A DNA stretch of 64,000 nucleotides from an uncultured bacterium (GTDB lineage Bacteria; Lernaellota; Lernaellaia; Lernaellales; Lernaellaceae): positions 2,276-66,275 of the forward strand of contig CAZHPN010000002.1 in assembly GCA_964534375.1 (NCBI GenBank), written 5' to 3'. Shown here piece after piece: positions 1,090-25,070 of the stretch (position 1 is its first letter; each line of letters starts with the position of its first letter). Below the pieces are notes generated by a model, which did no database searches, was not told where the DNA came from, and was given only the letters and a program-made list of their open reading frames with translations. Both the position numbers and the translations under genes were made by a program.

Positions 1090-1252
1090 AAAACCTCCGG
1101 CTAGAATGAAGTCGCGCGGCGAAAGTTTCACCGGCCGTTCATTGCCGCCCGTTCGTCGTCGTCGGCAGCGCTCGCGCTGAGTCGCCGATGAAGCAGCGCG
1201 CGCTACGCCGCTGATTTTTTCCTTTTTCCTTTTTCCTTTACTATCCTCGCCC

Positions 1253-2275: not shown

Positions 2276-2282
2276 CCAGTGG

Positions 2283-2446
2283 CCGTTAGCCGGTAGCCAG
2301 TAGCCGGTAGTCAGTAGTCAGTAGCTGTGGGCCAACCTGCTCGCGCCAATGGAGCTTCTCAAGTTAAGGTTTCGTACAACGCCCGGGAAAGGCGGCCCCG
2401 TGGCTAGTGACTACTGACTACTGACTACTGACTACTAACTACTGTC
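2283..2446. repeat. Intergenic inverted tandem-hexamer repeat element (CAGTAG/CCGGTAG units mirrored by CTACTG units) forming a long imperfect hairpin
   Basis: 2283-2330 reads tagccggtagccagtagccggtagtcagtagtcagtagc. 2404-2446 reads gctagtgactactgactactgactactgactactaactactg, the reverse complement of the same unit. A ~75-nt spacer separates the arms. The element lies between the convergent ends of the channel gene and the nagB-like gene. Confidence 0.6.
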
Positions 2447-2460
2447 GACCAACCACCCGC

Positions 2461-3495: not shown

Positions 3496-3541
3496 GCGGT
3501 TCTCCCGCCGGCGAACGGCGCCCCGAGGCTGGCGCGCCGGT

Positions 3542-4900
3542 TCAGGCGAGGGCGAGTTTTAGTGCATCGGCAATTTGCTGGCAATAGGCCTGCGTCTGCT
3601 CGAGCGTCGGGCCCTCGACCATGACGCGGCACATGTTCTGCGTGCCCGAATATCGGACCAACACGCGGCCCGAATCGCCGAGCGCGGCTTCCACGTCTTT
3701 GATGACCGCGGTGACGGCTGGCAGCTCTTCGAGCGGCTTTTTTCGCCCGACGTCCACGTTGATCAGCGCCTGCGGGAAGACGTCCATCACCTTCGCCAGG
3801 TCGGACAGCGGCCGGCCCGTGCGCTGCATCACCGCGATCAACTGGACGGCCGAGAGCACGCCGTCGCCCGTGCCGTGGTGGTCGAGAAAAATCATGTGGC
3901 CGGATTCTTCGCCGCCGAGATTCGCGCCGAGCTTTTCCATGTCTTCCAGCACATAACGGTCGCCGACCTTCGAGCGGTGGTTTTTGATGCCGATCCGTTG
4001 GCAGGCGATCTTCAGGCCGAAGTTGCTCATCACCGTCGTGACGAGGAGATTGTTTTTCAACGCGCCGTGCGAGAGCAGGTTGAGCGCGCAGATCATCAAG
4101 ATCTGGTCGCCCGTGATCCGCCGGCCGAATTCGTCGACCGCGATCAGCCGGTCGCCGTCGCCGTCGAACGCGAGGCCGAGATCGGCGCCGCCGTGCCGCA
4201 CGATTTCTTCCAATTGCTTGGTGTGCTGGCTGCCGCAATCGTGATTGATGTTCAGGCCGTTGGGCTGGTTGCCGATGACCGTCACGTCGGCCCCGAGTTC
4301 GGTCAGCGTTTCGACCGCCGTTTTGTAGGTGGCGCCGTGGGCCGTGTCGATCGCGATCTTCATGCCTTCCATCGTCAGGTCGCGCGGAAAGGAGTTCTTC
4401 AAGAACTGAATGTACCGCCCCCGCGCGTCCTCGATGCGATAGGCGCGGCCCATATTCATCGCCTGCGGCGTCTGGTCGGGCAGCTTCGGGTCGAGGATCA
4501 GGCGTTCGAGCTCGGCTTCCTGTTCGTCGGTCAACTTGCGGCCGTTGCCGCCGAAGATTTTGATGCCGTTGTCTTCGTACGGATTGTGCGAGGCGGAGAT
4601 GACGATGCCGGCGTCGGCGCGCATGCTCTCGGTGATGAAGGCGATGCCCGGCGTCGGCAGCACGCCCACCAGATACGGGTTCCCGCCCATCGAGGTGATG
4701 CCGGCTTCGAGCGAACTCTCGAACATGTAGCCCGAAATGCGCGTGTCCTTGCCGATGATGACCCGCAGCTTGTGGTGATCGCCCACTTCCTGGCGCAAAA
4801 GGTGCGTCACGGCCTGCCCGACCGCGAACGCAATTTGCGCCGTCATCGGATGGCGATTGGCCTCGCCGCGAATGCCGTCGGTGCCGAACAACTTGCCCAT
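3542..4900 (-). CDS. glmM: Phosphoglucosamine mutase
   Basis: Starts MGKLFGTDGIRG, the canonical GlmM N-terminus. Phosphoserine loop SASHNP. The 18 aa of ORF upstream of this Met lack a start context. The antisense ORFs across this region are Arg-rich GC artefacts. Confidence 0.9.
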   Translation of the reverse strand: MGKLFGTDGIRGEANRHPMTAQIAFAVGQAVTHLLRQEVGDHHKLRVIIGKDTRISGYMFESSLEAGITSMGGNPYLVGVLPTPGIAFITESMRADAGIVISASHNPYEDNGIKIFGGNGRKLTDEQEAELERLILDPKLPDQTPQAMNMGRAYRIEDARGRYIQFLKNSFPRDLTMEGMKIAIDTAHGATYKTAVETLTELGADVTVIGNQPNGLNINHDCGSQHTKQLEEIVRHGGADLGLAFDGDGDRLIAVDEFGRRITGDQILMICALNLLSHGALKNNLLVTTVMSNFGLKIACQRIGIKNHRSKVGDRYVLEDMEKLGANLGGEESGHMIFLDHHGTGDGVLSAVQLIAVMQRTGRPLSDLAKVMDVFPQALINVDVGRKKPLEELPAVTAVIKDVEAALGDSGRVLVRYSGTQNMCRVMVEGPTLEQTQAYCQQIADALKLALA

Positions 4901-4991
4901 CACGCGCCCCCTTGTTTTGCCGGAATTTATAACCCCTGCCGCCGGGAACTGCAACCAACCGCGTCAGTCCAGGCGTGACGCGAACGTCTCG

Positions 4992-6107
4992 TCAGCCGAT
5001 TTCCTGGGCCTTCAGCGCCAGTCGTTCCCGGGCGAGGCGGAGGGCGTCGTGCAGTTTCTTTTCGAGCAGTTCGCGCGGCGGCAGTTCGGTCAGGTATTCG
5101 GCGATGCGCACGCCGCTCGTGGCGAGTTGCAGTAGTTCGACGTGCTCGCTCGATTTTCCGGCGCACAGGATCAGGCCGATGGGCGTTTCCTCGCCCGCTT
5201 GCATTTCGTATTTTTCCAGCCATCGCAGATACAGCTCCATTTGCCCTTTGTGAGCCGCCTGGAACCGGTCGAGCTTCAGATCGATGACCACCAGGCGCTT
5301 GAGCTTTCGGTGGTAGAAGAGCAGGTCGATGTAGTAATCCATGGTGTCCACCGTGATCCGCTTTTGCCGCGCCACGAACGAAAAACCGACGCCCAGTTCC
5401 AGGATGAACGATTCCAGTTCGCGCAGAATGGCGGATTCCAGATCCTTCTCGCTGTACGGCTCCTTGAGGCCGAGGAAATCGAGAAAATAGGGGTCGCGAA
5501 AAACCAGGTCGGGCGACATGCGGTCGGATTCGCGCAGCGCGTCGAGTTCCTCGCGGATCAGGTCTTCCGGCTTCGTGGCGACCGCCGTTCGCTCAAAGAG
5601 CATCTTGTTGATCTTGTCGCGCAAAGTGCGGACGCTCCAGCGTTCGATGCGGCACAATTCGGCGTAAAAATCGCGGCGGAGTTGATCGTCGAGAGGTAGG
5701 ATTTCGAGGAAATGGGACCAGGACAAATGTGCAGACAGTGTCCGCACTATTTCTCGGTCGGGAAAGACCTCGGCAAGACGGACCATTCGGAATAGACTTG
5801 GCCGGCTGAATCCTCTTCCGTACTCGGCGGACAATTGTCTCGACAGTGTTGAGACAATTTGTTCGCCGTATGCCGCTCGGCCTTCGCCGATCAACTCGCG
5901 CTTGATCCGCTCGCCGATATGCCAGTAAAGCAGCGTGGTTTCCGAGTTGACCGCCGCGGCGACGCGTTGTCGGGCAGATTCGATCAGCCCGCGCAAGTCG
6001 GCGAGCAACGCCGTCGGTCCCGAAACGCGGGCCGGCGGGAGGCCGTGCGCCGCCGGGCTCGCCTTTGCTTTCTTCGCCGGTTTCGTCAATTTCGCGATGC
6101 TTTTCAT
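4992..6107 (-). CDS. DUF1016/YhcG-like PD-(D/E)xK nuclease-fold protein
   Basis: ATG (cat at 6105-6107) begins MKSIAKLTKPAKK. The C-terminal half has an ...D...ELK-like restriction-endonuclease-fold core (VVIDLKLD...) that resembles E. coli YhcG. The 330-aa Arg/Gly-rich N-terminal part of the 701-aa ORF is judged non-coding GC noise. Confidence 0.7.
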   Translation of the reverse strand: MKSIAKLTKPAKKAKASPAAHGLPPARVSGPTALLADLRGLIESARQRVAAAVNSETTLLYWHIGERIKRELIGEGRAAYGEQIVSTLSRQLSAEYGRGFSRPSLFRMVRLAEVFPDREIVRTLSAHLSWSHFLEILPLDDQLRRDFYAELCRIERWSVRTLRDKINKMLFERTAVATKPEDLIREELDALRESDRMSPDLVFRDPYFLDFLGLKEPYSEKDLESAILRELESFILELGVGFSFVARQKRITVDTMDYYIDLLFYHRKLKRLVVIDLKLDRFQAAHKGQMELYLRWLEKYEMQAGEETPIGLILCAGKSSEHVELLQLATSGVRIAEYLTELPPRELLEKKLHDALRLARERLALKAQEIG

Positions 6108-6181
6108 CTCCGACAATTTCCCTCCAAACTTGATTGCCCCGCGCCCCTGAATGTTTTGCGCGGGCGGAGCCAGCCCGGTCG

Positions 6182-7420
6182 CTACGTTTCCGCTCGGAAC
6201 AGCGGCAGCACGCGCCAGACGTCTTCCTGCACGCGGGCGACGAGCGCTTGCAGCCAAGCCGTGCCGTGCTGCGCCGCCGCCGGCGGCAGCGATTGAATCG
6301 TTTTCACGTAGCCGTCGTGTTTGCCGGCGGCGAGGGCGGCGAGGAACGCCTCGCGCGCGTCGCGGCCCGCGTCGTCGCCGGGGCCGCGCTGCAAGGCGTC
6401 CGCGACGGCGCCGATGTTTTGCTGCAGCGCGCGCTTGCGTTGCGCGTCGATGTCGTCCGCGGTCGCGTCGATGCCCGCCGTGACCTTCGCCGCCATGTCG
6501 CGCAGGCGCTTGAGCCGTTCTTTCTTGCCGGATTCGAGGCAGGCGAGAGCGCCTTCGTAGAGCGCCGCGCCGAGCGGTTGCGCCTCGAAGAACGGCCGCC
6601 GCACCTGCTTGTACCAGGCGTCGAGCGCCAGCAGATTCGCGAAATACAGCAGGTTGTTGTTCACGATCCGCTGCAACTGCGGATAGCGCCGCGCCTGATA
6701 CGCGCGATTGATCGAATACGGCGCGGCGTCGACCACCAGACGCGCATCTTCCGCCACGTCGCGCCGCAGCACGGAGCCCGCGCCCACAACGTTGCCGTAG
6801 CCGAGTTGAATCGGCCCGACGATGCCGCCCTGGCCGCCGAGGAAGATCGGCCGCTGGTTCAGCATCACGCCGCGCGGCACATCGCCCAGCAGGCTGGCGG
6901 TCGTCTTGTCGCCCTCGGGCGTGAAGTTGAAATGGATGTAGCCGGAGCCGACCTCGCTGTGTTCTTTGCGGCTGACCCCGCCGGCCATCAGGCAATCGCA
7001 GAAGTTGATCAGGCTGCCGAGCGTGACGAACGGAAAAAGGATCGTCTGCTTCAGGCCGACCGCGTGCGCGCCGTTGGCCTCTTCCTCGACGATGCACCCC
7101 TCACGGACCTGCGCCGCCAGACCCAGGCTCGCCTTTTCGAGAAACACCGACTGCCGAAAGTAGCCGCCCTTGAGTTGCACGCCCGGCCCGAGCTGGCAGT
7201 CTTCGACGATCGCCGGCCCCTCGCGCCCGAGTTCGACGTTGGCGCAGACCGCGGTCTTCGCGCCGTGCAGGCGGCAGCCCGGGTAGATGACGACGCCGTC
7301 GCCCGCGATGCGGTCGAGGTTCACGTCGTCGCCGACCACGACTGTCAGCGGGTTGATGAACTTCACGCCTTTGTCGAGCAGACCTTTGATCTTGTCGCTG
7401 ACCGTGACGACGATTTCCAC
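6182..7420 (-). CDS. Left-handed beta-helix (hexapeptide-repeat) protein, acyl/nucleotidyl-transferase-like, function unknown
   Basis: Repeated [LIV]-G-x-x-x-x hexapeptide turns (VGAGSVLRRDV, IVGPIQLGYGNVVG). The preferred start is the GTG at 7420, which sits behind GGAGGG. The ORF-track start at 7450 is TTG with no SD. Confidence 0.5.
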   Translation of the reverse strand: MEIVVTVSDKIKGLLDKGVKFINPLTVVVGDDVNLDRIAGDGVVIYPGCRLHGAKTAVCANVELGREGPAIVEDCQLGPGVQLKGGYFRQSVFLEKASLGLAAQVREGCIVEEEANGAHAVGLKQTILFPFVTLGSLINFCDCLMAGGVSRKEHSEVGSGYIHFNFTPEGDKTTASLLGDVPRGVMLNQRPIFLGGQGGIVGPIQLGYGNVVGAGSVLRRDVAEDARLVVDAAPYSINRAYQARRYPQLQRIVNNNLLYFANLLALDAWYKQVRRPFFEAQPLGAALYEGALACLESGKKERLKRLRDMAAKVTAGIDATADDIDAQRKRALQQNIGAVADALQRGPGDDAGRDAREAFLAALAAGKHDGYVKTIQSLPPAAAQHGTAWLQALVARVQEDVWRVLPLFRAET

Positions 7421-7573
7421 CGCGCCCTCCGACTTGTTTGATTTGGCCAAGGCATACCAGGAAGCGGCTCGAAAATCCAGCGTCGGCCGGCTCCAGCGGC
7501 CAAATCGGCTTCGTTTCGTAAAATCAGGCCAAAGCGCTAGCGAAATGACATGGCAAACTGGCCCAAAGTGACG

Positions 7574-8074
7574 TTAACTGGCCTTTCCCGATACGGGCGG
7601 AAACGCCGCCCGCGCCTGCCGCACGAAAAGCGCGCGCAGCTTGTCCCAGAAGTCGCCGCCGAGGACGAAAAGGCTTGTCAGGAACATGGCGTCGGCGGCG
7701 AGGTTCACCCACAGCCGCGCGGGCGTCGCGTCGGGCAGCCATTGGGGCGCGTAGGCCATGACGTAACCGGGCGCCACGGGCAGCAGGAAAAGAATCAGCC
7801 CCGTCCAATGGCGAACCGGGCCGATGTCGCCCGCGGGCTTGAGGCTGCCGACCCAGCCCTTGGCGCGCTTCACGATGCGCTCGAAATTCTCTTTGCCCAT
7901 GACGGCCGCGGCCGGAATCGCCATGATCTCGAACCCAAAAAAGAGGACGCCGCCGACGGCCGTCTTCACCGCGGCCGGCCAGCTCGAATGGGCGACCGGA
8001 AAGACGCACAGCGGCAAAATCGCGCCGACGACGAGCATGGCGACGCCGACGGCGAATCTGGCATTGGCGCTCAT
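7574..8074 (-). CDS. Small integral membrane protein, hypothetical
   Basis: ATG (cat at 8072-8074). It is 166 aa with about four hydrophobic helices. It runs divergently from pfp. Confidence 0.45.
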   Translation of the reverse strand: MSANARFAVGVAMLVVGAILPLCVFPVAHSSWPAAVKTAVGGVLFFGFEIMAIPAAAVMGKENFERIVKRAKGWVGSLKPAGDIGPVRHWTGLILFLLPVAPGYVMAYAPQWLPDATPARLWVNLAADAMFLTSLFVLGGDFWDKLRALFVRQARAAFPPVSGKAS

Positions 8075-8247
8075 GAGGCGTTCCGTTCGCCACGATGCTT
8101 CGTCATGATCGTCCTCGCCTCTGAAAAAGTTCTATTTTCGCCGGCACGTTACCAACGTTTGGAGCCTTTTCCTATCCGGTCCGCGCCACGTTGAAACAAG
8201 GGCGCGTTGCCGCCATAATCGCGCGGCTTAGCACAAGGGAGCCCGGC

Positions 8248-9453
8248 ATGCGCGGAAATCTCGTCATCGGCCAATCCGGCGGCCCGACCGCCGTCATCAA
8301 TGCGTCGCTCGTCGGCGTGATTCAGGAAGCGAAAAAACATGCGGAGTTCGGCCAGCTTTACGGCATGCGGTTCGGCATTCAGGGCCTGCTCGACGAAAAC
8401 CTGATCGATCTGCGCGCCGAGAGCGAGGCGACGTTGGAACTGCTCAAGGTCACGCCCTCGTCGGCGCTCGGTTCGTGCCGCGTGAAACTCACCGACGAGC
8501 ATCTGCCGCAGATTCTCGCGGTGCTGCGGAAATATGATATCCGCTATTTCTTTTACATCGGCGGCGACGATTCGCAGAATACGACGCATCGCGTGGTCGA
8601 ATACGCAAAGGCGCAGGGCTACGAATTGGGCGGCATCGGCATTCCGAAAACCGTGGACAACGACCTGTTCGGCACCGACCACACGCCGGGCTACGGCTCG
8701 GCGGCGCGCTACGTGGCGCTGTCGGCGCAGCAGGGCGGCATTTTGGCGCGCGACATGTGCCAGGTCGATCCGGTGCTGGTTTATCAGGCCGTCGGCCGCG
8801 ACGCCGGGTGGCTGGCCGCCGCCGCGGCGCTCGCGAAAAAGTACGAGGAAGATCCGCCGCATTTGATCTACATCCCCGAGCGGCCTTTCAGCAAGGAAAA
8901 ATTCTGCGCCGATGTCGAACGCTGCTACGCCAAATACGGCTTCGTCTCGATCGTCATCGGCGAGGGCATCGCTTACGCCGACGGCTCGCCGGTTTCGGGC
9001 ACGCAAACCTTCGACAAATTCGGCAATCCGGAATTCGGCGCGATGGGCGGCGTCGCGGCGGCGACGGTCGTCAAAAAAATCGCCTGCGACTGCCTCGACG
9101 CGCGCGGCGAATTCCAGATCGTCGAATCGCTGCAAATGGCCGGCGCCGACCGCGTCTCGCTCGTCGATCGCGCCGAAGCGTACGAAGCGGGCGCCGAGGC
9201 CGCGCGCTGGGCCGCCGCCGGCCGCTCGGGCGTGATGGTCGCCTTCGAACGCGAGCCGGGCGCCGAATATCGCATCAAATGCGTGCCCGTGCCGCTCACG
9301 CGCGTCAACGAGGGCAAGCAGACCATGCCCGCGCATTTCATCGACGACAAAAACAGCATCGTCACCGAAGCCTTTTTGCAATACCTGCGCCCGCTCGTCG
9401 GCGAGTTGCCGCCGATGGGCCGGCTGGCGTATAAGAGGGTTGCCACAAAATAG
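8248..9453 (+). CDS. pfp: Pyrophosphate-dependent 6-phosphofructokinase (PFK family, GGDD type)
   Basis: ATG at 8248 behind AAGGGAG. Motifs GQSGGPTAVINAS, YIGGDDS (Gly to Asp substitution characteristic of PPi-PFK) and PKTVDNDL. Confidence 0.85.
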   Translation: MRGNLVIGQSGGPTAVINASLVGVIQEAKKHAEFGQLYGMRFGIQGLLDENLIDLRAESEATLELLKVTPSSALGSCRVKLTDEHLPQILAVLRKYDIRYFFYIGGDDSQNTTHRVVEYAKAQGYELGGIGIPKTVDNDLFGTDHTPGYGSAARYVALSAQQGGILARDMCQVDPVLVYQAVGRDAGWLAAAAALAKKYEEDPPHLIYIPERPFSKEKFCADVERCYAKYGFVSIVIGEGIAYADGSPVSGTQTFDKFGNPEFGAMGGVAAATVVKKIACDCLDARGEFQIVESLQMAGADRVSLVDRAEAYEAGAEAARWAAAGRSGVMVAFEREPGAEYRIKCVPVPLTRVNEGKQTMPAHFIDDKNSIVTEAFLQYLRPLVGELPPMGRLAYKRVATK

Positions 9454-9473
9454 TCTTGCCGATGGAGGGTAAA

Positions 9474-10286
9474 GTGAGAGCGTCGGAGGTCCTTTCCGCC
9501 CGAACTGCGGGATTGCGTTTCTCTATGGCGCTTTGCTGCCTCGCGCTCGCCGCCTGTGCGCCGGTCACCTACAACCGCTATCAGCCGGCGCAGACGATGG
9601 GCGAGGGGCAATTCAAGTTGGCGGCGTCGATCGACACGGGCTGCGACCCCATGGGAGAACTTTGGCCGGACGTTGCAAATGAAGTCGGCGCGCTATGTAC
9701 GGACGACCCATGCAGCGGCAGAGGCGTAGCGGCCGCGGCAAACGCGCCCGGGGGAAATGTGTCCTTCGCTTATGGAGCGGCAGACATCGTTGACGTTGAA
9801 GCGTCGTTGTCGACCGCCTTGTACGCGCGGGCCAACGCCAAAGTGCAGTTGCTGCGTTTCGGCGGCAACGGCGCGCTGGCGCTGTCGCCGGGCGGCGGCT
9901 ATCTCCCGTTTGCGGGACATGGCAGCAGCGATCCAAATCTAGATTCAATTCACCGCGACCGGTTTTCCGGTTTCGTCGGAACGTTCGAGGCGCCGCTCAC
10001 TGTGGGTTGGGAAGTCGCGCCGGCATCGATTTATTTTGGCGCAATGTCGGCCTACACCCACATCCAAATCGACTATCACCGCATCGCCACGGATTACAGA
10101 CAGAACATCGAGCACCGGTACGATTGGATACTCCTCGGCCCGATTTTCGGCGTTCAGTTCCGGTGGAAGTGGTTCATTATCACGCCGGAAATCGTTGTGC
10201 CGTTTAAGGCCGTTCGATTTCGCCCGGCTTACGACGAGAGCACATTTTACATCTCGCCGGGTTTGCAACTGGGAGCCCGATGGTGA
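9474..10286 (+). CDS. Lipoprotein, beta-barrel-like; paralog family copy 1
   Basis: GTG at 9474 behind GGAGGG. Signal plus lipobox ...LALAACAP, then the conserved VTYNRYQPAQTMGEGQFKLAAS. The C-terminus SPGLQLGARW has a terminal aromatic. It is paralogous to 13667-14551. Confidence 0.6.
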   Translation: MRASEVLSARTAGLRFSMALCCLALAACAPVTYNRYQPAQTMGEGQFKLAASIDTGCDPMGELWPDVANEVGALCTDDPCSGRGVAAAANAPGGNVSFAYGAADIVDVEASLSTALYARANAKVQLLRFGGNGALALSPGGGYLPFAGHGSSDPNLDSIHRDRFSGFVGTFEAPLTVGWEVAPASIYFGAMSAYTHIQIDYHRIATDYRQNIEHRYDWILLGPIFGVQFRWKWFIITPEIVVPFKAVRFRPAYDESTFYISPGLQLGARW

Positions 10287-10361
10287 ACGGCGCGAGCCAT
10301 TTGTGGCGACTGCAACCCATTCAACATCGTTTTGCTTGCGGCTTGGCGGCCGTCGGTAGGC

Positions 10362-10869
10362 AATATGAACCGTAACAGAATTTTTGGATTGCTTTGCCTT
10401 GCCGCGCTCGTCGCCTGTGCGACGGCCCCGGTCAACCGGCGCCAACCGGCGCAAACCATGGGCGAGGGCCAGTTCAAGCTGGCGGCCTCGTGAACGTGAG
10501 GTTCGCGCACCGCGCGCCAAAAGACGTCGACGTCGAGGTCTCGGTCGCGACCCACATCGCCGAATCGATCACGCCCGGCGTGTACCTGCGCACGAACGCC
10601 AATGTGCAGCTTCTGCGTTTCGGCGAGGTCGGCGCGCTCGCGTTGGCCCCCGGCCTTGGCGATATTACGGGACCATCAACGGCCTCCACGCCTTTGTGCA
10701 CGGCGAATACGATTTTCTGGCGATCGGCCCGGTGGTCGGAGTCCAATGCAAATGGAGTTGGTTTGTTCTGACGCCGGAATTGACTGCGTTGTACGAGCAA
10801 GAACTCGCCCGATACGATGACACAAACAATTTTTACATTGTGCCCGGCCTGCAACTCGGCGCGCAGTTC
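10362..10869 (+). pseudogene. Disrupted paralog of the lipoprotein family (multiple frameshifts, premature stop, lost stop)
   Basis: Frame 0 reads MNRNRIFGLLCLAALVACATAPVNRRQPAQTMGEGQFKLAAS, then hits a stop. Homology continues in frame +2 (VQLLRFGEVGALALAPG) and then frame +1 (GPVVGVQCKWSWFVLTPE...YIVPGLQLGAQF). The terminal stop is lost. Confidence 0.6.
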
Positions 10870-11098
10870 CAGCCGGTTTGTCGAGGTTGGAAAAAAGAAA
10901 AACGAAGCAGGTTGTTTTTCAAAATCGCGCGAGTTGGCTTCTCGTTGTTGCGTTCTCTTGCCTCATCCGCGCCGCCCGCGCTCCTGGATTCGGCGACTAT
11001 AGTGATTAATCTCGAAAAGTTGGTCTCGACGGTTATTGGGGGCGGCGGCTAATGCGTGCATTCATTCAAGAACAATCGGCGGCGAAGGAGAGAAGGCG

Positions 11099-11881
11099 AT
11101 GGCCAATCACAACATCGGGACACGCGAAGAGTGGCTGGCAGCCAGGCTGGCGTTGCTGAAGGACGAGAAGGCGCTTACGCGACGCAGCGACAAGCTGGCG
11201 CGGCGGCGGCAGGATCTGCCGTGGGTCCGGGTCGACAAGGAGTACCGCTTCGAGACCGAGGAAGGAGCGGCCTCGCTGGCCGACCTTTTCCGCGGGCGTT
11301 CGCAGCTTCTCGTCTATCATTTCATGTTCGGGCCCGACTACAAGGCGGGGTGTCCGTCTTGCTCGTCGATCGCGGACGGGTTCAATGGTTTCTTCGTCCA
11401 CCTAGCCAACCACGACGTCATGTTTTCGGCGGTGTCGCGAGCGCCGCTCGCGAAACTGCAGGCGTACAAGAAGCGGATGGGCTGGAGTTTCCCCTGGGCG
11501 TCCTCGCATGGCGCGGACTTCAACTTCGACTTCAACGTTTCGCTCACCGAGGAGCAACAGCGCGCCGGGGCCGAGTACAACTACCGGCGCGAAGAGGCGT
11601 GGCCGGTCGGCGAACCAGACGATTCATCGACAGGAGACGGCGAGGGGCCGGTCGACGAGATCGCGGCCATGACCGGAACCGACGTGGCCACCTACACGCG
11701 CGAGCGGCCCGGCATGAGCGCGTTCGCAATCGAGAATGGCGTCGTCTACCACACCTATTCGACCTATTCGCGCGGATTGGACGTCCTGTGGGGTGTCTAC
11801 CAATGGCTCGACCGCGCGCCGCTGGGGCGCAACGAGACGGGCATCTGGTGGCGCCGCCACGACGAGTACGGCAATAGTTGA
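11099..11881 (+). CDS. DUF899 thioredoxin-like domain protein
   Basis: ATG at 11099 behind AAGGAGAG. The product is about 260 aa and contains a CPSC motif in the sequence HFMFGPDYKAGCPSCS, typical of the DUF899 thioredoxin-fold family. The upstream TTG-initiated ORF extension is not needed. Confidence 0.65.
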   Translation: MANHNIGTREEWLAARLALLKDEKALTRRSDKLARRRQDLPWVRVDKEYRFETEEGAASLADLFRGRSQLLVYHFMFGPDYKAGCPSCSSIADGFNGFFVHLANHDVMFSAVSRAPLAKLQAYKKRMGWSFPWASSHGADFNFDFNVSLTEEQQRAGAEYNYRREEAWPVGEPDDSSTGDGEGPVDEIAAMTGTDVATYTRERPGMSAFAIENGVVYHTYSTYSRGLDVLWGVYQWLDRAPLGRNETGIWWRRHDEYGNS

Positions 11882-11908
11882 GAGCGGCATCCGCGCCGAA
11901 GGCTTGAA

Positions 11909-11969
11909 TGCAGGGGCGGTTCGCGAACCGCCCCTGCGCTGAACGGACCGGCAAAAAGCGGATTTTTGC
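11909..11969. terminator. Bidirectional terminator between convergent genes
   Basis: Perfect 14-bp palindrome gcaggggcggttcg/cgaaccgcccctgc at 11909-11936. A second hairpin, ggcaaaaagcggatttttgcc, carries A/T runs on both sides. Confidence 0.5.
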
Positions 11970-11994
11970 CAGCGGCGCGGCAATGAGCAATGAA

Positions 11995-13368
11995 CTAATT
12001 GCCGTCGTAATGCAAAATCACCCCACTGTAGCCGACGGCGAATACGTCCGAGGCCGAGCTGCCCCAGACGCCGTACAATGACTGTGCGGACGACGCGGGG
12101 ATCGACATCTGCGACCACGCGGCGCCGTTGTATTGCCAAATCCCCAGGCCGCTGCCTCCCACGCTTCCCACGACGAACACGTCGCTTGCCGAGGCGCCCC
12201 AAACGCCGGCCAGATCCATGGAAGACATCGCGGGGACTGTCATCGCCGACCACGAGGCGCCGTCGTAATGCCAGACCGGCTGGAGATATGCGCCGTCGTA
12301 TCCGACGGCGAACACGTCCGAGGCCGAGCTGCCCCAAACGCCGGTGAATATCACCGTGTCCGTCATTTCCACGGTCATCTCCGACCACGAGGAACCGTCG
12401 TAGTTCCAGAACGATCCGGCGTTTTCAGACGCGGAATAGCCGGCGGCGATCACGTTCGAAGCGGAACTTCCCCAAACGCCATTTAACCCGACGTCCGTCC
12501 CCGGGCCGGGTGTGGCGATCGACCACGAGCTTCCATTGTATTGCAAGGCGACCGGGCCGAATTCGCCGGTCCCGTCCCAGCCGACGCCGATCACGTTCGC
12601 GGCGGAACTTCCCCAAACGGCGCCAAAATACACTTCATCGGTCGTGATGTTCCCCATCGCCGACCACGAGGAACCGTCGTAATGCACGACGGTGACGCTG
12701 TCGGTGCTCGTCTGGTAGCTGCCCACCACGTACACGTCGGAACTGGCGCTTCCCCAAACGCCAACGAACGCTGCGGGGATCCCGGTCGCCGTATAGGACC
12801 ACGAGGAACCGTCGTAATGCCCGATCTCGCCGTTGTCGCCGACCGCGAACACGTCGGAAGGCGAGCTTCCCCAAACGGCGTGCAAATCGTACGGCTGCCC
12901 CCCGGCGGCCGCCACCGACCAATTGTCATCGTCATCGTCGACCGGCGACGTGTCATTGTCGTCGTCATCGTCGACGGTGTCGTTGTCGTCATTGTCGTTG
13001 TCGTCGTCATCGTTGTCGTCGTTGTCGTCATCGTTGTCGTCATCGTTGTCGTCATCGTTGTCGTCATCGTTGTCGTTGTCGTCGTTATCGTCGTCGTCGT
13101 TGTCGTCGTCGTCGGGGGCTGTGTCGTCGTCGACTGGCGGCGACGTGTCGTTGTCATTGTCGTCGTCGTTGTCATTGTCGTCGTCATCGTCCGGCGAAGC
13201 GTCGTTGTCGTCGTCGTCCGGCGAGGCGTCGTCGTCCGGCGAAACGTCGTCGTCGACGGCATGGCCGTGACTGCTGCTGCTGGAGCCGCAGTCGCACGAT
13301 GCCGCGGCAATGACCAGCAAACCCGCCAGAACCATCAGAGCCAGGTGCAAAGCGATTTTCGACCTCAT
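11995..13368 (-). CDS. Exported lipoprotein: lipobox, ~110-aa poly-Asp/Asn low-complexity linker, then 8-bladed beta-propeller-like repeat domain
   Basis: ATG (cat at 13366-13368) behind GGAGGG. Signal ...LVIAAASC. Linker DDDVSPDDDASPDDDDND...(DDDND)n. About eight ~45-aa repeats of the form GVWGSSASDVFAVG...HYDGSSWS. Confidence 0.75.
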   Translation of the reverse strand: MRSKIALHLALMVLAGLLVIAAASCDCGSSSSSHGHAVDDDVSPDDDASPDDDDNDASPDDDDDNDNDDDNDNDTSPPVDDDTAPDDDDNDDDDNDDNDNDDDNDDDNDDDNDDDNDDNDDDDNDNDDNDTVDDDDDNDTSPVDDDDDNWSVAAAGGQPYDLHAVWGSSPSDVFAVGDNGEIGHYDGSSWSYTATGIPAAFVGVWGSASSDVYVVGSYQTSTDSVTVVHYDGSSWSAMGNITTDEVYFGAVWGSSAANVIGVGWDGTGEFGPVALQYNGSSWSIATPGPGTDVGLNGVWGSSASNVIAAGYSASENAGSFWNYDGSSWSEMTVEMTDTVIFTGVWGSSASDVFAVGYDGAYLQPVWHYDGASWSAMTVPAMSSMDLAGVWGASASDVFVVGSVGGSGLGIWQYNGAAWSQMSIPASSAQSLYGVWGSSASDVFAVGYSGVILHYDGN

Positions 13369-13666
13369 CTTCCCTCCGGTGTTAGAGTGAACAGCTCAAG
13401 TTGCGATTATTTTATCAGCAAATGTTCCAATATGTCAAGGAAAGTTGACGGAAAGCAATGGAATGGCGCCAAATTAACTGTCGTTCGCGTCTGTGTCGAC
13501 GCATTATCTCGCAAAATCGACGTCCCAGTCGGCCGACTACCTGGACGTTTCGGTCTTTCGTCGTTCGCGGGCGCGCGGTTCGAGGCGATTGGGGCGGTGG
13601 CCGATAACGGGATTTCGTCGTATGCTGCGTTTGCCGGGTCAAATTCGCTTTTCTGAGGTTGACGAG

Positions 13667-14551
13667 ATGAGGCAAAAGAACGCGGCGATTGCGTCGCCCG
13701 CGCAGAGCCGTTTCTTCACTGCACTGTGTCTTCTGGCGCTGCTCGCGGCTTGCTCCCCGATCACCTACAATCGTTATCAGCCGGCGCAAACCATGGGCGA
13801 AGGGCAATTCAAGCTGGCGGCGTCCGCGGAATTCGGCAAGGAAATGGCAGCCAACGTCCAGACGAGCCTGGCGGCCCAGATGGACCAGAAAGTGCTCGCC
13901 TGGTCGACGAGCCATCCGCTGCCGGGCGGGAGGACGCTCGGCGCCGCCGGCGTCGGACCGCCGAGTTCCGTCGGCATTTTGAATCTGCCCGCGCTCAGTG
14001 ATCCCGTGCCGCAAGCGAACGTCTATTTCGCGTACGGCCTGACGAACACGCTCGACCTCGAAGGTTCGATTTCGACCGCGCCCTACTTTCGCTTCAACGC
14101 CAAAGCGCAGGTGTGGCAATTTGGCTCGCGCGGCGCCGTCGCCGTCGCGCCGGGCGTCGGTTACTTGCCGTTCAGCGAATCCGCGAGCGGGTCCGGCGGC
14201 AGAGTCAAGGACAAATACAGCGGCTACGCGGCGACGGCGGAGCTGCCGGTGGTCGTCGGCTGGCAGTATCACGTTGTCTCGCCGTACGTGGGCGTGCTGC
14301 TCGCGTACAATCACATCGGCCTGAACTTCTCGCGCGTCGACTCCGATTTCACGCCGGCGTTCTCCGGTTTCCTGACCGCGGATTACGACCTGTTCAGCGT
14401 CGGGCCGATGGTCGGCGTGCAACTCAAATTCGGCCCGTTCATCCTGACACCGGAGCTCATCGCGCTCTACGCGCACGGGGCCGGCAGCGGTCTCGTGCTG
14501 CCGCATTCGTTTTTCCTCTCGCCGGGCCTGCAATTGGGCGGGCAATGGTAG
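13667..14551 (+). CDS. Lipoprotein, beta-barrel-like; paralog family copy 3
   Basis: ATG at 13667 behind GAGG. Lipobox LLAACSP plus PITYNRYQPAQTMGEGQFKLAAS. C-terminus SPGLQLGGQW. It is similar along its length to 9474-10286 but carries insertions. Confidence 0.65.
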   Translation: MRQKNAAIASPAQSRFFTALCLLALLAACSPITYNRYQPAQTMGEGQFKLAASAEFGKEMAANVQTSLAAQMDQKVLAWSTSHPLPGGRTLGAAGVGPPSSVGILNLPALSDPVPQANVYFAYGLTNTLDLEGSISTAPYFRFNAKAQVWQFGSRGAVAVAPGVGYLPFSESASGSGGRVKDKYSGYAATAELPVVVGWQYHVVSPYVGVLLAYNHIGLNFSRVDSDFTPAFSGFLTADYDLFSVGPMVGVQLKFGPFILTPELIALYAHGAGSGLVLPHSFFLSPGLQLGGQW

Positions 14552-14559
14552 CAAGGCGG

Positions 14560-14830
14560 AGGGCTAAAAAGCCGGGCATCTTCACCTCTCCCGCTGGGAC
14601 AGGTCGCCGAGTGCAACGAGGCGGGCGAGGGTGAATGCCGATGGGGCCGCCACCCCAGTCCTCTCTCAGGGGGAGAGGGAGCATGAACCTCTCCCTCCGG
14701 GAGAGATCGCCCGCAGGCTGGGTGAGGGCATCTTCACCTCTCCCCCTGGGAGAGGTCGCCGCGCGAAGCGCGGCGGGTGAGGGCGCTCACCCCATCCCTC
14801 TCCCAGAGCGAGAGGGAGGTTGAAAATCGA
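14560..14830. repeat. Cluster of REP-like palindromic repeats (two ~60-bp copies plus GGGAGAGG-type palindromes)
   Basis: The unit gggcatcttcacctctccc[g/c]ctggga[c/g]aggtcgccg...gcggg[c/t]gaggg[tgaa/cgct] occurs at ~14573 and ~14732. Each copy folds as ttcacctctccc / gggagaggtgaa. Between them lie cctctctcagggggagagggag and cctctccctccgggagag. The cluster sits between convergent gene ends. Confidence 0.5.
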
Positions 14831-14891
14831 CGCCGCCCCGGGGGCGGCATCGATTCCAATCACCTGTCGGTTCGGCGGCTTTTCGGTCGGT

Positions 14892-17800
14892 TCACCGGGC
14901 CCGCGGCGCGGCCTGACTGGTCTTTTTCTTGCTTCCGCCGCTACAGGCTTGCTCCTGGCATGTCGCCGGCGGGATGCAGACTTCGCAAACGGCGCCGCCG
15001 GTCCCGCAAGCGCCGGAGTCGGTTCCGAGCTGGCACGTGCCGGTGTTGTCGCAGCAGCCGTTCGGGCACGACGTGGCGTCGCACACGCATTGGAAGCTCA
15101 GGCATTCGGCGCCAGAGGCGGTGCAATTTTGGCAAACCACGCCGCCCGTGCCGCAGTTGGAGTTGTCGCCGCCAGTTTGGCAGTTGACGCCGCTGCAGCA
15201 GCCGGACGGACACGAATTGGCGTCGCAGACGCACGCGCCGCCCGAGCATTCCTGACCGCCGGCGCACGTCGTGCAGGCCGCGCCGCCCGCGCCGCAGTTG
15301 CTGGGGCTGGCGGCCATGCAGACATTGCTCGCGCAGCAGCCGGCGCACGTCCCGTCGCACGCGCACTGCTGGTTCGTGCAACTATCTCCCAAATCGTTGC
15401 AATTCTGGCACGCGCCGCCGGCCTGTCCGCAGAGAGAGGGCGCCGTGCCGGCATAGCACGTGTTCCCGCTGCAACAGCCGTTGATCGTTGCGCACGACGC
15501 TTGCGTGCAGATGCATTGCCCGCCCGAGCACGTCTGGCCGTTGGCGCACGCGATGCAGGCGCCGCCGCCGGAGCCGCACTCGGCATCCGTGACCGGATTC
15601 ACGCAGGTCGACCCGTTGCAACAACCGCTCGCGCAGGCGCTGGTGTCGCAGACGCATTGATTGCCCACGCAATCGTTGCCCGCGCTGCACGTCTGACAGG
15701 CCTGGCCGTTGGTTCCACAGGCGCTGGGGCTGCCGGCAGTCTGGCAATTGCCGGTGTTGTCGCAGCAGCCCGTCGGGCAGGAACCCGACGCCCCCGGCGT
15801 GCAGGTGCACGTGCCGAGCACGCATTCCTGACCGCTGGCGCACGCGCCGCAGATGGCGCCGCTCGCGCCGCAATACGTGGTGTTCTCATTGTCGTAGATA
15901 ATGCACGGCCCAGCCGGCGTCCGGCAACATCCCGTATTGCACGTATTCGAGTTGCAGACGCACCCGCCGGCCACGCACTGGGCGCCGATTGCGGTGCAAT
16001 TCGTGCACGCCGCGCCGGCGGTTCCGCAATCCGCGTCGGCGCCGGAGGTCACGCAATTGCCGCCGTCGCAGCAACCCGAGACCGCCGCGCACGCCGTCGC
16101 GTCGCAGACACAGGCGCCGGACGCGTTGCAGATCTGTCCGGGGGCGCAGGAGAAGCAGGCCGTGCCGCCCGTGCCGCACGAGCCGGCGCTCTCGCCGCTA
16201 TAGACCTCGCACGGTCCGAGCGGCGACACGCAACAGCTTGCGGCGCACGAGGTCGCGTTGCATACGCAGGCGCCACTTTGACATTCTAATCCGCTGTCGC
16301 ACGAGACGCAGGGGGCGCCGTCCGCGCCGCATTGCGAATTGATATTGCCCTGCTCGCACGACGCCCCGGCGCAGCAACCCGAACTGCACGTCGTGTTGTC
16401 GCAGACGCATTCGCCGGCGACGCAATGGTTGCCCGCGCTGCAGACCTGACACTGCGCGCCGCCCGTGCCGCAGGCGCTGTCCGAGGTTCCGTCCTGGTTG
16501 CATTCGGGGGCTGAACCCGGGCAGCAACCGGTGCAGGTAATCGTGTCGCAGGTGCACTCGCCGCTCACGCAATCGACGTCGGTCGCGCACGCCGAACACG
16601 TCGCGCCGCCCAGGCCGCAGGAGCCGGGGCTTTGTTGGTCGAACGTTTCGCACGGCCCGGCGAATCCGGCGACGCAGCAGCCGTTCGCGCACGAAACGCC
16701 GTCGCAAATGCACACGCCGCCGTCGCCGCACCGATATCCGGCGTTGCACGAGATGCACACGGCGCCGCCCACTCCGCAGTCGGAATTCTGGTTGCCCGGC
16801 TCGCAGGTTGTGCCGTCGCAGCACCCGGAGGTGCATGCGGTCGTGTCGCAAACGCATTGCTGCTGCGGGCTGCACTCATTGCCCTCGGGGCAGGCTTGGC
16901 AACTCGCGCCGCCTTTGCCGCAAAAAGTGCTTGTTGTGCCGTCCTGGCAGTTGTTATTGGAGTCGCAGCAGCCTTTTGGGCACGAGGTTGGGTCACAGGT
17001 GCAGACGCCGTTTGCGCATTCTTGATTGGTCAGGCAACCCGCGCAGACCGCGCCGTCGGCGCCGCACGCCGTGACGCTCTGCTGCGCGATCGGCAGGCAA
17101 TTCCCGGCGACGCCGTAGCAGCAGCCCCCGGCGCATGTCGTCGCATCGCAGGCGCAGGTCCGGTTCGTGCAGGGCACGCCGTCGGCGCAGGCGACGCACG
17201 CCGCGCCGCCGCTGCCGCAGGCCGAACTATCCTCGGTGGTCACGCACTGGTTTCCCGAGCAGCAGCCCGTCGGGCAAGCCGTGGAGTCGCACGTGCAGGA
17301 GTTTTTCACGCATTCCTGCCCCGTGGCGCAGGGCGCGCACGCGACGCCGCCTGTGCCGCAGGCCGAATTATCCCCGGCGGTCACGCACTGGTTTCCGGAA
17401 CAGCAGCCGTTCGGGCATGACGTTGCGTCGCACACGCAGACGCCGTTCACGCATTCGGCGCCAAGGGCGGTGCAATCCTGGCAGACCGCGCCGCCGAGCC
17501 CGCAGTCGTTATTGGCTTCGTCCTGGTGGCAGCTGCCGGTGCTGTCGCAACAGCCGTTGTTGGCGCCCACGCAGTGCGCGGCGCAACTTTCGCACTGATA
17601 CGTCGCCGCATTGCAGTATTCTTGCGGCGTCATCGCCGTGCAATTGACGCAGGCTGTTCCGCCGGTCCCGCAGTAGTTGCTGTCGGTCCCCGTCAGGCAT
17701 GTGGCGCCGGAACAGCAACCTGTCGGGCAGTCTGATGGATCGCAGAAGTTCACGCAGGCCCCGTTTTGGCAGACGGTTCCGCTGGCGCAATCCTGGCACG

Positions 17801-18146
17801 GTTGGCCGTCCACGCCGCAAGCCGAGTTGCTGTTTCCCGGTTGGCAGCCTTCGTCGAGGCAGCAACCCGAGCAATATTTCGAGGCATGACAGGGGGGCGG
17901 GGTCGAGTCGTCATCGTCGGCGTTGTCGTCGTCGCCCGCGCTGTCGTTGTCGTTGTCATCGTCGTCGCCCGCGCTGTCGTCGTTGTCGTCGTTGTCGTTG
18001 TCGTCGTCGTCGATCGCGGAATCGTCATTGTCGTCGTCGGCCTGGCGCTGGCCCGTCAAGGATGCGGCGCCGCTGCCGCCGCCGCAGGACGTCGCCAAAA
18101 GCACCAACAAAGTCGCCAAGAGCGTGAATAACAACGCGCGTTTCAT
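14892..18146 (-). CDS. Giant exported lipoprotein: lipobox, poly-Asp linker, ~20 tandem cysteine-rich repeats (Myxococcus-type Cys-rich repeat-like)
   Basis: ATG at 18146 (MKRALLFTLLATLLVLLATSC) behind GAAGGTGG. Linker DDDNDDSAIDDDDNDNDDNDDSAGDDDDNDND. The body repeats C-x-CD-x-T-x-C-x-x-GCC-x-G-x-x-C-x(3-7)-CG-x-GG-x-x-C-x-x-C roughly every 45 aa. Antisense ORFs in this region are artefacts of the repeat DNA. Confidence 0.75.
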   Translation of the reverse strand: MKRALLFTLLATLLVLLATSCGGGSGAASLTGQRQADDDNDDSAIDDDDNDNDDNDDSAGDDDDNDNDSAGDDDNADDDDSTPPPCHASKYCSGCCLDEGCQPGNSNSACGVDGQPCQDCASGTVCQNGACVNFCDPSDCPTGCCSGATCLTGTDSNYCGTGGTACVNCTAMTPQEYCNAATYQCESCAAHCVGANNGCCDSTGSCHQDEANNDCGLGGAVCQDCTALGAECVNGVCVCDATSCPNGCCSGNQCVTAGDNSACGTGGVACAPCATGQECVKNSCTCDSTACPTGCCSGNQCVTTEDSSACGSGGAACVACADGVPCTNRTCACDATTCAGGCCYGVAGNCLPIAQQSVTACGADGAVCAGCLTNQECANGVCTCDPTSCPKGCCDSNNNCQDGTTSTFCGKGGASCQACPEGNECSPQQQCVCDTTACTSGCCDGTTCEPGNQNSDCGVGGAVCISCNAGYRCGDGGVCICDGVSCANGCCVAGFAGPCETFDQQSPGSCGLGGATCSACATDVDCVSGECTCDTITCTGCCPGSAPECNQDGTSDSACGTGGAQCQVCSAGNHCVAGECVCDNTTCSSGCCAGASCEQGNINSQCGADGAPCVSCDSGLECQSGACVCNATSCAASCCVSPLGPCEVYSGESAGSCGTGGTACFSCAPGQICNASGACVCDATACAAVSGCCDGGNCVTSGADADCGTAGAACTNCTAIGAQCVAGGCVCNSNTCNTGCCRTPAGPCIIYDNENTTYCGASGAICGACASGQECVLGTCTCTPGASGSCPTGCCDNTGNCQTAGSPSACGTNGQACQTCSAGNDCVGNQCVCDTSACASGCCNGSTCVNPVTDAECGSGGGACIACANGQTCSGGQCICTQASCATINGCCSGNTCYAGTAPSLCGQAGGACQNCNDLGDSCTNQQCACDGTCAGCCASNVCMAASPSNCGAGGAACTTCAGGQECSGGACVCDANSCPSGCCSGVNCQTGGDNSNCGTGGVVCQNCTASGAECLSFQCVCDATSCPNGCCDNTGTCQLGTDSGACGTGGAVCEVCIPPATCQEQACSGGSKKKTSQAAPRAR

Positions 18147-18603
18147 GTGAACCACCTTCTACCGGATCAACACGGCGTGTCTGACAACTGCAAGACTTGT
18201 GCCTCGTTCGGCGACGCCTTTGGTTCTCTAATCTACCACAATTTCAAATGGTTTCAACAACGGTCTTGCGGGCGATGGCCGAATGACTGTGAAAATTTTT
18301 CACAGAACTGGTAAAACTTTTCACTATTTTCTGCTCCCGTTCGTTCGCCGGTTCCCGTTCCGGTCTCCATGGGAAGACCCCTCTTCTCGCTCCGGAAGAC
18401 AAAATCTCCGCCTCTCTCCTCCCGGCGCAAAGTGCGTTGTTTTCCTGGCCGAACGGGGCGGCCGTGGCATTTTCTCTATTGTCTCGGACCGTCGAATGGA
18501 TCAAAATAAAAACCGGACGAAGGGCGTCTGGCGGGCGGAGCGGCGCCTGGAACGGACGCTCGAAATCAACAACTCGGCGACGAGCGACGATAAGGGCGGC
18601 GAC

Positions 18604-19737: not shown

Positions 19738-19832
19738 CGGCCCGCGCGGGCGGCGACCGTTGGCCGCCGTCCGACGAAATGCCGGCTCCGGATGGCCGCG
19801 GCGCCGCGTTTCCGCCTTGCCAAGCCCGCTTT

Positions 19833-19843
19833 CGTGTTACAAT
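19833..19843 (+). promoter_or_regulatory. Conserved promoter-like box TTTCGTG-T-TACAAT (extended -10 type) upstream of paralog 1
   Basis: tttcgtgttacaatatt with TACAAT at 19838-19843, 50 nt upstream of ATG 19888. An identical motif with identical spacing precedes paralog 2. Confidence 0.45.
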
Positions 19844-19887
19844 ATTTTCTCGGCCGGCAACCGAACGACACAAGGCGTCACTGTCCG

Positions 19888-24684: not shown

Positions 24685-25070
24685 AAAACGACGGCGACAA
24701 AACGCACTTGCAATCCGTTAACGGACGTTGGCGCCGACGCGCCATGGATATCCGTTTGGAAAAGAACTGTGCGGACCGCCTGCCGCGCCGGCGGACGACG
24801 CTGCCGGCGCAGCGACGAATCGCCCTTGTTTCCGACGGTTGCGCGCGGGGCGGCGCGTTTCGCTCTCTGCCGATAACTCGCGCGAACGGCGCGGAAAGCG
24901 GACCATTCGAAACCGAATGACAGAAAAGATCATCCAATAATAAACGACGGCTCGCCGGCGCGCCAATTTCCCTCTTTTTTTATCATTTTTCTTCCTTTTT
25001 GCGGAGTTTCTGGTATACTGCCTTAGGTCGGCGAATCGGCTTCTGTGAGGACAGAACGAGGGGAAGGTCG

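Follow-up and report, generated by a model that had tools for sequence, protein, structure and literature searches.

Known outer-membrane barrels and the paralogous lipoproteins of the window

Slam, itself not a lipoprotein, combines a 14-stranded DUF560 barrel with a TPR domain in the periplasm; NalP is a 12-stranded lipidated autotransporter carrying its lipid on the passenger domain; OprM forms the barrel of an efflux channel, giving four strands towards a trimeric 12-stranded barrel, together with a long helical tunnel; and in omptins the active site lies at the extracellular rim. As a lipidated outer-membrane (OM) protein, OprM provides a precedent for the lipidation of proteins of this membrane (PMC3230066). 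The genes analysed here are three paralogs, two intact (copies 1 and 3) and one decayed (copy 2), situated between positions 9474 and 14551 of a 64 kb stretch of DNA from an uncultured member of the Lernaellota (contig CAZHPN010000002.1; this whole stretch is referred to as the window). The products of copies 1 and 3 are probably lipid-anchored, monomeric, 10-stranded OM beta-barrels of about 265 mature residues, belonging to a rare and lineage-restricted family. This is an ordinary but uncharacterised family of outer-membrane proteins (OMPs), and it is no Slam, omptin or autotransporter.

As a whole, the family resembles the small barrels of the OpcA, OmpX and OmpT class in its likely way of working, without any detectable shared sequence. 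With the known 10-stranded OM barrels OpcA (2vdf), OmpT/Pla (7xw0, 2x55), Legionella porin I (9nh1) and the designed TMB10 (8uzl), it has in common the predicted strand number, the up-down topology and an aromatic C terminus. However, sequence identity to them is 7-11%, no Pfam or PDB sequence match connects the two sides, Foldseek TM-scores are merely 0.3-0.45 and, unlike the family, these barrels have neither N-terminal lipidation nor a conserved segment after the lipidated Cys. Strands 5 to 8 of the family model, 19-24 residues long, are comparable to those of OmpT and OpcA, in which strands of that length project beyond the membrane. Concerning the omptins (PF01278), no hidden Markov model (HMM) match, no invariant His and no catalytic signature was found in the family. 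The likeness to Slam is solely one of proposed logic, namely an OM barrel gene adjoining the genes of presumably surface-exposed lipoproteins, whereas the family has ten strands, no extra domain, a lipobox and no DUF560, and its adjacency to putative substrates is not conserved. As for OprM/NodT and NalP, they share with the family the combination of a lipoprotein signal and OM barrel strands in one polypeptide, but the family would form a single small barrel without passenger or tunnel.

Both intact copies were recovered as paralogs by the open reading frame (ORF) map and by BLASTP, which aligns them end to end with 38% identity (E = 5e-57), and the shared N- and C-terminal motifs quoted for them in the original prediction are present. 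The copy 1 ORF (9456/9474-10286, + strand) encodes a precursor of 270 amino acids (aa) with a lipobox LAAC (Cys28 at 9555-9557), a signal peptide reading ...RTAGLRFSMALCCLALAAC/AP (the slash follows the lipobox), the conserved N-terminal motif TYNRYQPAQTMGEGQFKLAAS at 9567-9629 and the C-terminal end ...PGLQLGARW; it matches the family HMM with E = 1.2e-86. The copy 3 precursor (294 aa) likewise has a lipobox LAAC, with Cys29 at 13751-13753, a signal peptide reading MRQKNAAIASPAQSRFFTALCLLALLAAC/SP, the N-terminal motif at 13763-13825 and the C-terminal end ...PGLQLGGQW. Public gene calls place the start of copy 1 at an internal ATG at 9525 (P0004, 253 aa). The start codons GTG 9474 and ATG 13667 are supported by Shine-Dalgarno-type sequences upstream of each, GGAGGG at a distance of 5 nucleotides (nt) for copy 1 and GAGG at 9 nt for copy 3. 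Taking as lipoprotein signals a basic n-region, a hydrophobic h-region and a lipobox [LVI][ASTVI][GAS]C, a type II signal peptide is found at the sequence level in copies 1 and 3 and in pseudo-copy 2.

The family is small. A word-indexed protein search retrieved four proteins, i.e. the two window copies, P0002 and P0003, and hmmsearch, run exhaustively on 1.84 billion representatives, found 26 matches at E <= 1e-3, including copies 1 and 3, two copy 2 fragments and one spurious repeat protein. The latter, P0019 (2514 aa, 14 matched stretches), was rejected as a member, its NRTGNGSF repeat matching the N-terminal motif. The total size of the family amounts to about two dozen clusters at 50% identity. 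Among the contigs of species-level genomes it was found in one metagenome-assembled genome (MAG), at two unlinked loci (L006 and L007); a metagenome scan with an 11-sequence alignment provided three further short contigs, and a word-indexed search with an 18-sequence profile gave, among the matches listed, already-known members only. Named sources are Ca. Alcyoniella australis (P0008; phylum Lernaellota), a KSB1 MAG (P0026) and a deltaproteobacterial MAG (P0027). The description of the Lernaellota (PMC9324843) is silent on these proteins.

The hallmark of the family is a lipobox Cys directly followed by xPx(T/S)YNRYQxAxTxGxGxxK, together with the residues D130, E132, R142, N144, K146, D182, E192 and TPE (261-263), several Gly and Pro, and a C terminus PGLxLGxx(W/F), seen as ...PGL(Q/A)LG(G/A)x(W/F). 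G124, G250 and E263 are invariant in every family alignment. A Cys is aligned with Cys29 in at least 90% of the aligned members; the lipobox pattern is matched in 17 of 21, three of the other four being N-terminally truncated sequences or calls and the last, P0026, reading LATC. In the second gene of the tandem pair on L023 (4550-5434, +; P0014), which was called as 240 aa, an upstream extension of the ORF provides a full signal peptide and lipobox (LLLVGC/SAVSYNRYQ), and the C-terminal end, ...GLQVP, lacks the aromatic residue.

Pfam and NCBIfam scans of copies 1 and 3 gave zero matches, an NCBIfam scan of ten relatives gave no meaningful one, and a PDB sequence search with the family profile returned nothing below E = 1. 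The link to a described domain runs through the KSB1 branch, which is joined to the core family by hhalign (99.8%, E = 5e-28, 241 columns). P0026 matches Pfam DUF5777 (PF19089, "Membrane bound beta barrel domain") with 30.3 bits, above the gathering threshold of 23.1, over positions 48-156 of the 247 in the profile, and P0022 reaches 21.3 bits against the same threshold; the window copies and every other core member have no DUF5777 match, even at E <= 5. Judging from these profile matches, the core family is probably a distant relative of DUF5777, with which it shares a similar size (~250-290 aa) and the presumed nature of a membrane barrel. DUF5777 is itself uncharacterised, and no mention of it was found in the literature searched.

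Predicted fold and conservation pattern

Barrel topology prediction had been suggested as a check on the three paralogs, and AlphaFold2 indeed returned a 10-stranded barrel from an alignment of 21 sequences, with a predicted local distance difference test (pLDDT) of 84.9 and a predicted template modelling score (pTM) of 0.78; this run superseded one with four sequences (pLDDT 61). The modelled strands span residues 48-56, 115-124, 129-136, 141-152, 156-174, 180-199, 204-225, 232-255, 258-272 and 282-293, and the turns of 2-4 residues (125-128, 153-155, 200-203 and 256-257) lie on the side holding both termini. Loop 1 comprises 58 residues, in part helical (61-82) and in part disordered, and the segment after the lipidated Cys (residues 31-50) has a pLDDT of 87-98. 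The model thus has an even number of strands, with its short turns and its longer loops on opposite sides, as in a closed barrel.

In fold comparisons, the highest figure was obtained with a designed transmembrane 10-stranded barrel (16.2), followed by Legionella porin I (14.5), OmpT (14.1), OpcA (13.9) and the soluble nitrobindin-like Rv2717c (13.8); the residues aligned number 171-191 with OpcA, OmpT and Legionella porin I vs. about 134 with nitrobindin. All of the 50 best matches that Foldseek listed from the PDB are OMPs, at the low TM-scores given above, and the modelled barrel has no close solved relative.

The conservation of the membrane belt differs between the two faces of the strands. 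At 47 hydrophobic belt positions, the charged fraction is 0.001 and the mean entropy 1.94 bits, while at the 24 polar belt positions, which hold the invariant charges, the mean entropy is 1.10 bits (Mann-Whitney p = 7e-4 vs. the hydrophobic positions). Since the hydrophobic faces are variable and uncharged and the polar faces conserved and charged, a lipid-exposed exterior with a polar lumen is favoured; the reverse pattern is expected of a soluble barrel. Most strands have aromatics close to the two ends of their hydrophobic stretch, as a rule at a spacing of 8-12 residues (F48/F56, Y166, Y187/W199, Y207/Y214, F255, F258/Y268 and F283/W294), and outside the zone that they bound, strands 5 to 8 are polar on both faces. 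The terminal residue is W or F in 19 of the 21 aligned members. The amphipathic pattern and the terminal aromatic had originally suggested an OM barrel; together with the conserved lipobox, the ten modelled strands and the column statistics, they now argue for a barrel-like OM lipoprotein.

In the mechanism that we propose, the type II signal peptide would be cleaved at the conserved lipobox Cys and this Cys acylated, the A or S at +2 being compatible with Lol transport to the OM, where the C-terminal ...PGLxLGxx(W/F) may act as a beta-signal for insertion by BAM. Both termini and the short turns would be periplasmic, whereas loop 1, with its helix and disordered stretch, and the long strands 5 to 8 would project outward. 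The nearly invariant 18-residue segment following the anchor may pack into or under the polar lumen, against D130, E132, R142, K146, E192 and E263, and if it does, the barrel would be plugged and structurally closed, not an open pore. As variation is concentrated in loop 1, divergence between paralogs is fast and tandem arrangement is frequent, the role proposed for this OMP is a surface-exposed one, either structural, adhesin-like or receptor-like; at most, it would be a small gated channel.

Several points weigh against this interpretation. Every family member is known from its sequence alone, the role of the plug is deduced solely from conservation, and so is the assignment of inside and outside, which was not read from coordinates; the belt limits used for the statistics were chosen by the analyst from the aromatic positions. 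Among the inward-facing residues, V188 and I196 are hydrophobic, and the alternation changes register in strand 7. No Pfam OMP model was reached by copies 1 and 3 and, to our knowledge, small monomeric barrels seldom have a lipidated N terminus. Genes for BAM or Lol were not noticed among the window ORFs scanned, and the sole sign of a diderm envelope comes from the relative L007, in which two ORFs were read as GspD- and GspE-like by sequence, without a domain search. Finally, a general, non-adjacent role in the handling of surface lipoproteins would be compatible with the synteny described below.

Decay and divergence of the paralogs

Copy 2 is a pseudogene, the three remaining blocks of which lie in three different reading frames (Table 1). 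The premature stop, the two frame changes and the lost stop codon originally reported for it were all recovered by translation, tblastn and the family HMM; its location also stands, with a start at ATG 10365 instead of 10362. Block N has the lipobox VAC, with Cys18 at 10416-10418 and a signal sequence reading MNRNRIFGLLCLAALVAC/AT, and is terminated by an in-frame TGA at 10491-10493; where TYNRYQ is invariant in the other members, it has PVNRRQ, with both Y34 and Y37 replaced. Block M is 43% identical to copy 1 by tblastn, and 54% to copy 1 and 50% to L001a (one of the two paralogs on contig L001) by blastp. For block C, tblastn gives 48% identity with copy 1 and 46% with copy 3, and the stop after its terminal F (10867-10869) is lost, the ORF continuing to 11052. 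The two frame changes fall at two internal deletions, one of ~60 aa between blocks N and M, in the loop-1 region, and one of ~70 aa before block C, comprising much of strands 5 to 7. Across copy 2, the window is matched by contigs of four other public assemblies (JGI 3300041809, ENA ERZ27250145, ENA ERZ27249816 and Logan SRR6946416), three of these contigs at 100% identity and the JGI one at 99.97% over 12.8 kb. Because all four have identical breaks, an assembly error is ruled out and the decay is real.

Table 1. Features of the paralog locus, in window coordinates
Feature	Position	Strand	Evidence
pfp	8191-9453		PF00365
Copy 1 (family member, intact)	9474-10286	+	ORF map, BLASTP, family HMM
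Pseudo-copy 2 (family member, decayed)	10365-10872	+	three reading frames, tblastn, family HMM
Block N of copy 2: signal peptide, lipobox and degenerate motif PVNRRQPAQTMGEGQFKLAAS	10365-10493	+	translation; tblastn 76% to copy 1; HMM E = 3.9e-11
Block M of copy 2: strands 2-5 (NVRFAH...ALALAPGLGDI)	10493-10666	+	frame +2 relative to block N; HMM positions 116-160, E = 9.6e-9
Block C of copy 2: strands 8-10 (...YDFLAIGPVVGVQCKWSWFVLTPE...PGLQLGAQF)	10690-10872	+	frame +1; HMM positions 228-287, E = 3.4e-16
DUF899 (thioredoxin-like) gene, outside the barrel family	11099-11881	+	Pfam PF05988, E = 2.9e-96
Polyaspartate (polyAsp)-linker lipoprotein with repeat-rich C-terminal domain, outside the barrel family	11995-13368	-	ORF, D-rich scan (23 D in 30 aa)
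Copy 3 (family member, intact)	13667-14551	+	ORF map, BLASTP
Cys-repeat lipoprotein, 1087 aa, with N-terminal polyAsp linker, outside the barrel family	14892-18155	-	ORF, D-rich scan

The pseudogene had been taken as a sign of recent duplication or recombination, and a DNA-level alignment of the three copies had been suggested as a means of dating it. Such an alignment gives short matching stretches only, which are 79-89% identical in the region of the N-terminal motif and 66-78% identical, in fragments, over the rest. The barrel blocks of copy 2 are merely 43-54% identical to the nearest intact copies (copy 1 and L001a), approximately as in any paralog pair here, and its N-terminal block, which is conserved family-wide, is 66-76% identical to them. 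Since the barrel blocks have diverged like those of any paralog pair, the view of a recent duplication does not hold, and copy 2 is an old paralog that has decayed. In a rough neighbour-joining tree, pseudo-copy 2 groups with copy 1 and L001a, and copy 3 with L001b. As for the 21-codon N-terminal motif, copies 1 and 3 show seven synonymous and zero non-synonymous differences, which rules out gene conversion as the origin of its identity and indicates that this identity reflects purifying selection.

The closest relative, L001, is co-sampled with the window, and its pfp gene is 89% identical to that of the window at the nucleotide and 90.7% at the amino acid level (L001 1-816 vs. window 8635-9436), whereas the best barrel pairs (L001 3508-5378 vs. 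the window copies) are only 49-53% identical. This contrast corresponds either to very fast evolution or to differential retention of paralogs. Between pfp and the paralogs, L001 has four additional genes, coding for an alpha/beta hydrolase and three small ORFs. Tandem pairs were found in the window (copy 1 and pseudo-copy 2), L001, L016 and L023/L024. Loop 1 is the most gapped and least conserved region of the family alignments, and copy 1 and pseudo-copy 2 are devoid of most or all of it. A variable loop 1 combined with fast divergence is what is expected for surface-exposed OMP families with variable loops.

Gene neighbourhood and competing explanations

From left to right, the locus consists of pfp, copy 1, pseudo-copy 2, the DUF899 gene, the polyAsp lipoprotein, copy 3 and the Cys-repeat lipoprotein, and both the ORF map and Pfam agree with the order given in the original prediction. 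The interleaving with polyAsp lipoproteins that it described is seen as well, although the unrelated DUF899 gene also sits among them. In Pfam, the polyAsp lipoprotein matches only a beta-propeller model (Rax2 C-terminal domain, E = 0.013), weakly and below threshold, and the Cys-repeat lipoprotein, the gene of which is convergent with copy 3, has zero matches in the Pfam scan. On the JGI contig L008 (11450-12679, equal to window ~14970-16200), public calls divide the Cys-repeat region among several small ORFs on the plus strand. At 99.97% DNA identity, the window has a single 1087-aa minus-strand ORF across this region, and the divided call probably reflects an error of gene prediction in repetitive, high-GC sequence. 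A near-consensus sigma70-type promoter (TTGACA, 18 nt, TAAAAT, extended TG; 11/12 matches) is present at 13438-13409 (-), ending ~40 nt upstream of the ATG of the polyAsp lipoprotein (13368), in the divergent intergenic region shared with copy 3. A promoter and terminator scan of 9300-15000 gave counts no higher than the shuffled expectation.

Elsewhere in the window, two adjacent paralogous genes at 19792-21855 (+) and 21968-23980 (+), of ~670-690 aa, each contain a DUF4388, the second also having C-terminal TPR repeats. A DUF1016/YhcG-type gene at ~4990-6107 (-), with PF17761 and PF06250 according to the public call on the identical contig, is flanked by a phosphoglucomutase gene and an unannotated 422-aa ORF at 6182-7450.

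The distribution of polyAsp proteins was analysed by a D-rich ORF scan over all loci examined. Three polyAsp ORFs were found in the 64 kb window, five each in L007 and L012 (21 kb each), three each in L014 (21 kb) and L019 (20 kb), and one or two each in L021, L023 and L025 (4-11 kb), while none was detected in L006 (21 kb, from the same MAG as L007), L016 (Ca. Alcyoniella, 19 kb), L001 (5.9 kb), L017 (KSB1, 16 kb) or L018 (deltaproteobacterial MAG, 21 kb). In the lineages carrying them, their density is about one per 7-8 kb, and the chance of having a polyAsp gene as immediate neighbour is estimated at about 1 in 4; a directly adjacent polyAsp ORF was observed at 3 of the ~13 loci (window copy 3, L014 and L021), which fits this chance. 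No conserved neighbour was found across the ~13 loci. Depending on the locus, the unrelated neighbours include nuo genes, a PAS histidine kinase, rpsI/rplM, purL, an MscS-type channel, a nitroreductase, radical-SAM genes, a GMC oxidoreductase, pyrimidine biosynthesis genes, bactofilins and glycosyltransferases. The interleaving in the window is a local arrangement, since in L001 the two paralogs abut downstream of pfp and the 5.9 kb contig is devoid of a polyAsp gene. PolyAsp linkers look like a proteome-wide habit of the source organism rather than a feature of this locus.

Among the other proteins met in these loci, a third polyAsp-rich protein of the window is encoded at 24999-27608 (+), as an 869-aa ORF with DDDxxDDD repeats and no Pfam match. 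Two secreted proteins of L007, at 7473-8150 (+) and 998-4963 (+), have a C-terminal polyAsp followed by a terminal GCGC (...DDDSDGCGC and ...DDDDSGCGC), an unexplained tag-like C-terminal motif. In L017 (region 723-9491), P0026 is placed between three large FG-GAP/FlgD_ig proteins, one of them with a faint Por_Secre_tail match, of the type IX secretion system type.

The original prediction saw in the paralogs dedicated, Slam-like translocators or anchors for the adjacent lipoproteins. Even when widened to a dedicated or general translocator or anchor for polyAsp surface lipoproteins, either Slam-like or of the RcsF-OmpA/C/F type with the linker threading through the lumen, this explanation is very unlikely. 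Copy 3 has a polyAsp lipoprotein gene on either side, L014 and L021 have a polyAsp ORF directly upstream, the core family is mostly found in polyAsp-rich loci (window, L007, L012, L014, L019, L021 and L023), and basic residues are part of the conserved polar face (K49, R134, R142, K146, R223 and K254), but the conserved lumen holds equally many acidic and basic residues, and the adjacency, as mentioned above, is no more frequent than by chance and comes with no conserved neighbour. Moreover, L006, L016 and L001 are without polyAsp ORFs in the DNA examined, as are the loci of the distant KSB1 and deltaproteobacterial MAG members, no DUF560 or TPR signature was found by Pfam in any of the 21 members, and the AlphaFold2 model has ten strands without a periplasmic domain. 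The variation in loop 1, the fast divergence of the paralogs and their tandem arrangement do not point to a dedicated partnership with the adjacent polyAsp lipoproteins either. A related idea, to which we give very little credit, is a device specific to the Lernaellota and their relatives for exposing acidic-linker lipoproteins, in which a lipid-anchored, 10-stranded barrel with a conserved charged lumen and a detachable N-terminal plug would let the polyAsp tether thread across the OM; it would resemble RcsF-OMP threading or Slam while using an unrelated protein, and it would agree with the joint presence, at genome level, of the core family and polyAsp-rich proteomes.

Concerning the nature of the barrel itself, a soluble lipoprotein, periplasmic or surface-tethered, with a 10-stranded barrel of the nitrobindin, lipocalin or LolA/B type enclosing a hydrophobic ligand, is unlikely. 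Many bacterial lipoproteins are soluble barrels, and strands alternating between hydrophobic and polar residues suit either orientation. However, a soluble barrel would place the conserved charges outside and the variable residues in the core, which is the reverse of what is usual. The aromatics near both ends of the hydrophobic stretches of most strands, the terminal W/F, the strands of up to 20-24 residues, the more extensive alignment with OMPs than with nitrobindin, the OMPs that make up all of the 50 best Foldseek matches listed and the transitive link to DUF5777 argue in the same direction. An OM enzyme housed in a small barrel, be it an omptin-like protease or a lipid A modifier like PagL, PagP or LpxR, is highly improbable: invariant acidic and basic residues do exist (D130, K146 and E263), but they would lie in the membrane belt near the short turns, away from the extracellular rim, the invariant and nearly invariant residues listed for the family alignments include neither His nor Ser, and no member has an omptin, PagL, PagP or LpxR match in Pfam. 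The lipid-anchored OM barrel, probably plugged, remains the reading that we prefer.

For annotation purposes, the family could be given the name of a putative lipidated OMP with a distant relationship to DUF5777, copy 2 needs a pseudogene flag, and the neighbourhood of polyAsp lipoproteins should not be taken for an operon-like system. The question of real interest, on which this locus gives no answer, is how the many polyAsp-linker lipoproteins are handled in these lineages. If the preferred reading is true, a small uncharacterised family from poorly known phyla would join the catalogue of OM barrels, and it would be a mildly unusual one, both for the N-terminal lipid anchor on a monomeric 10-stranded barrel and for the nearly invariant 18-residue segment after this anchor, which is conserved together with the charges of the lumen.

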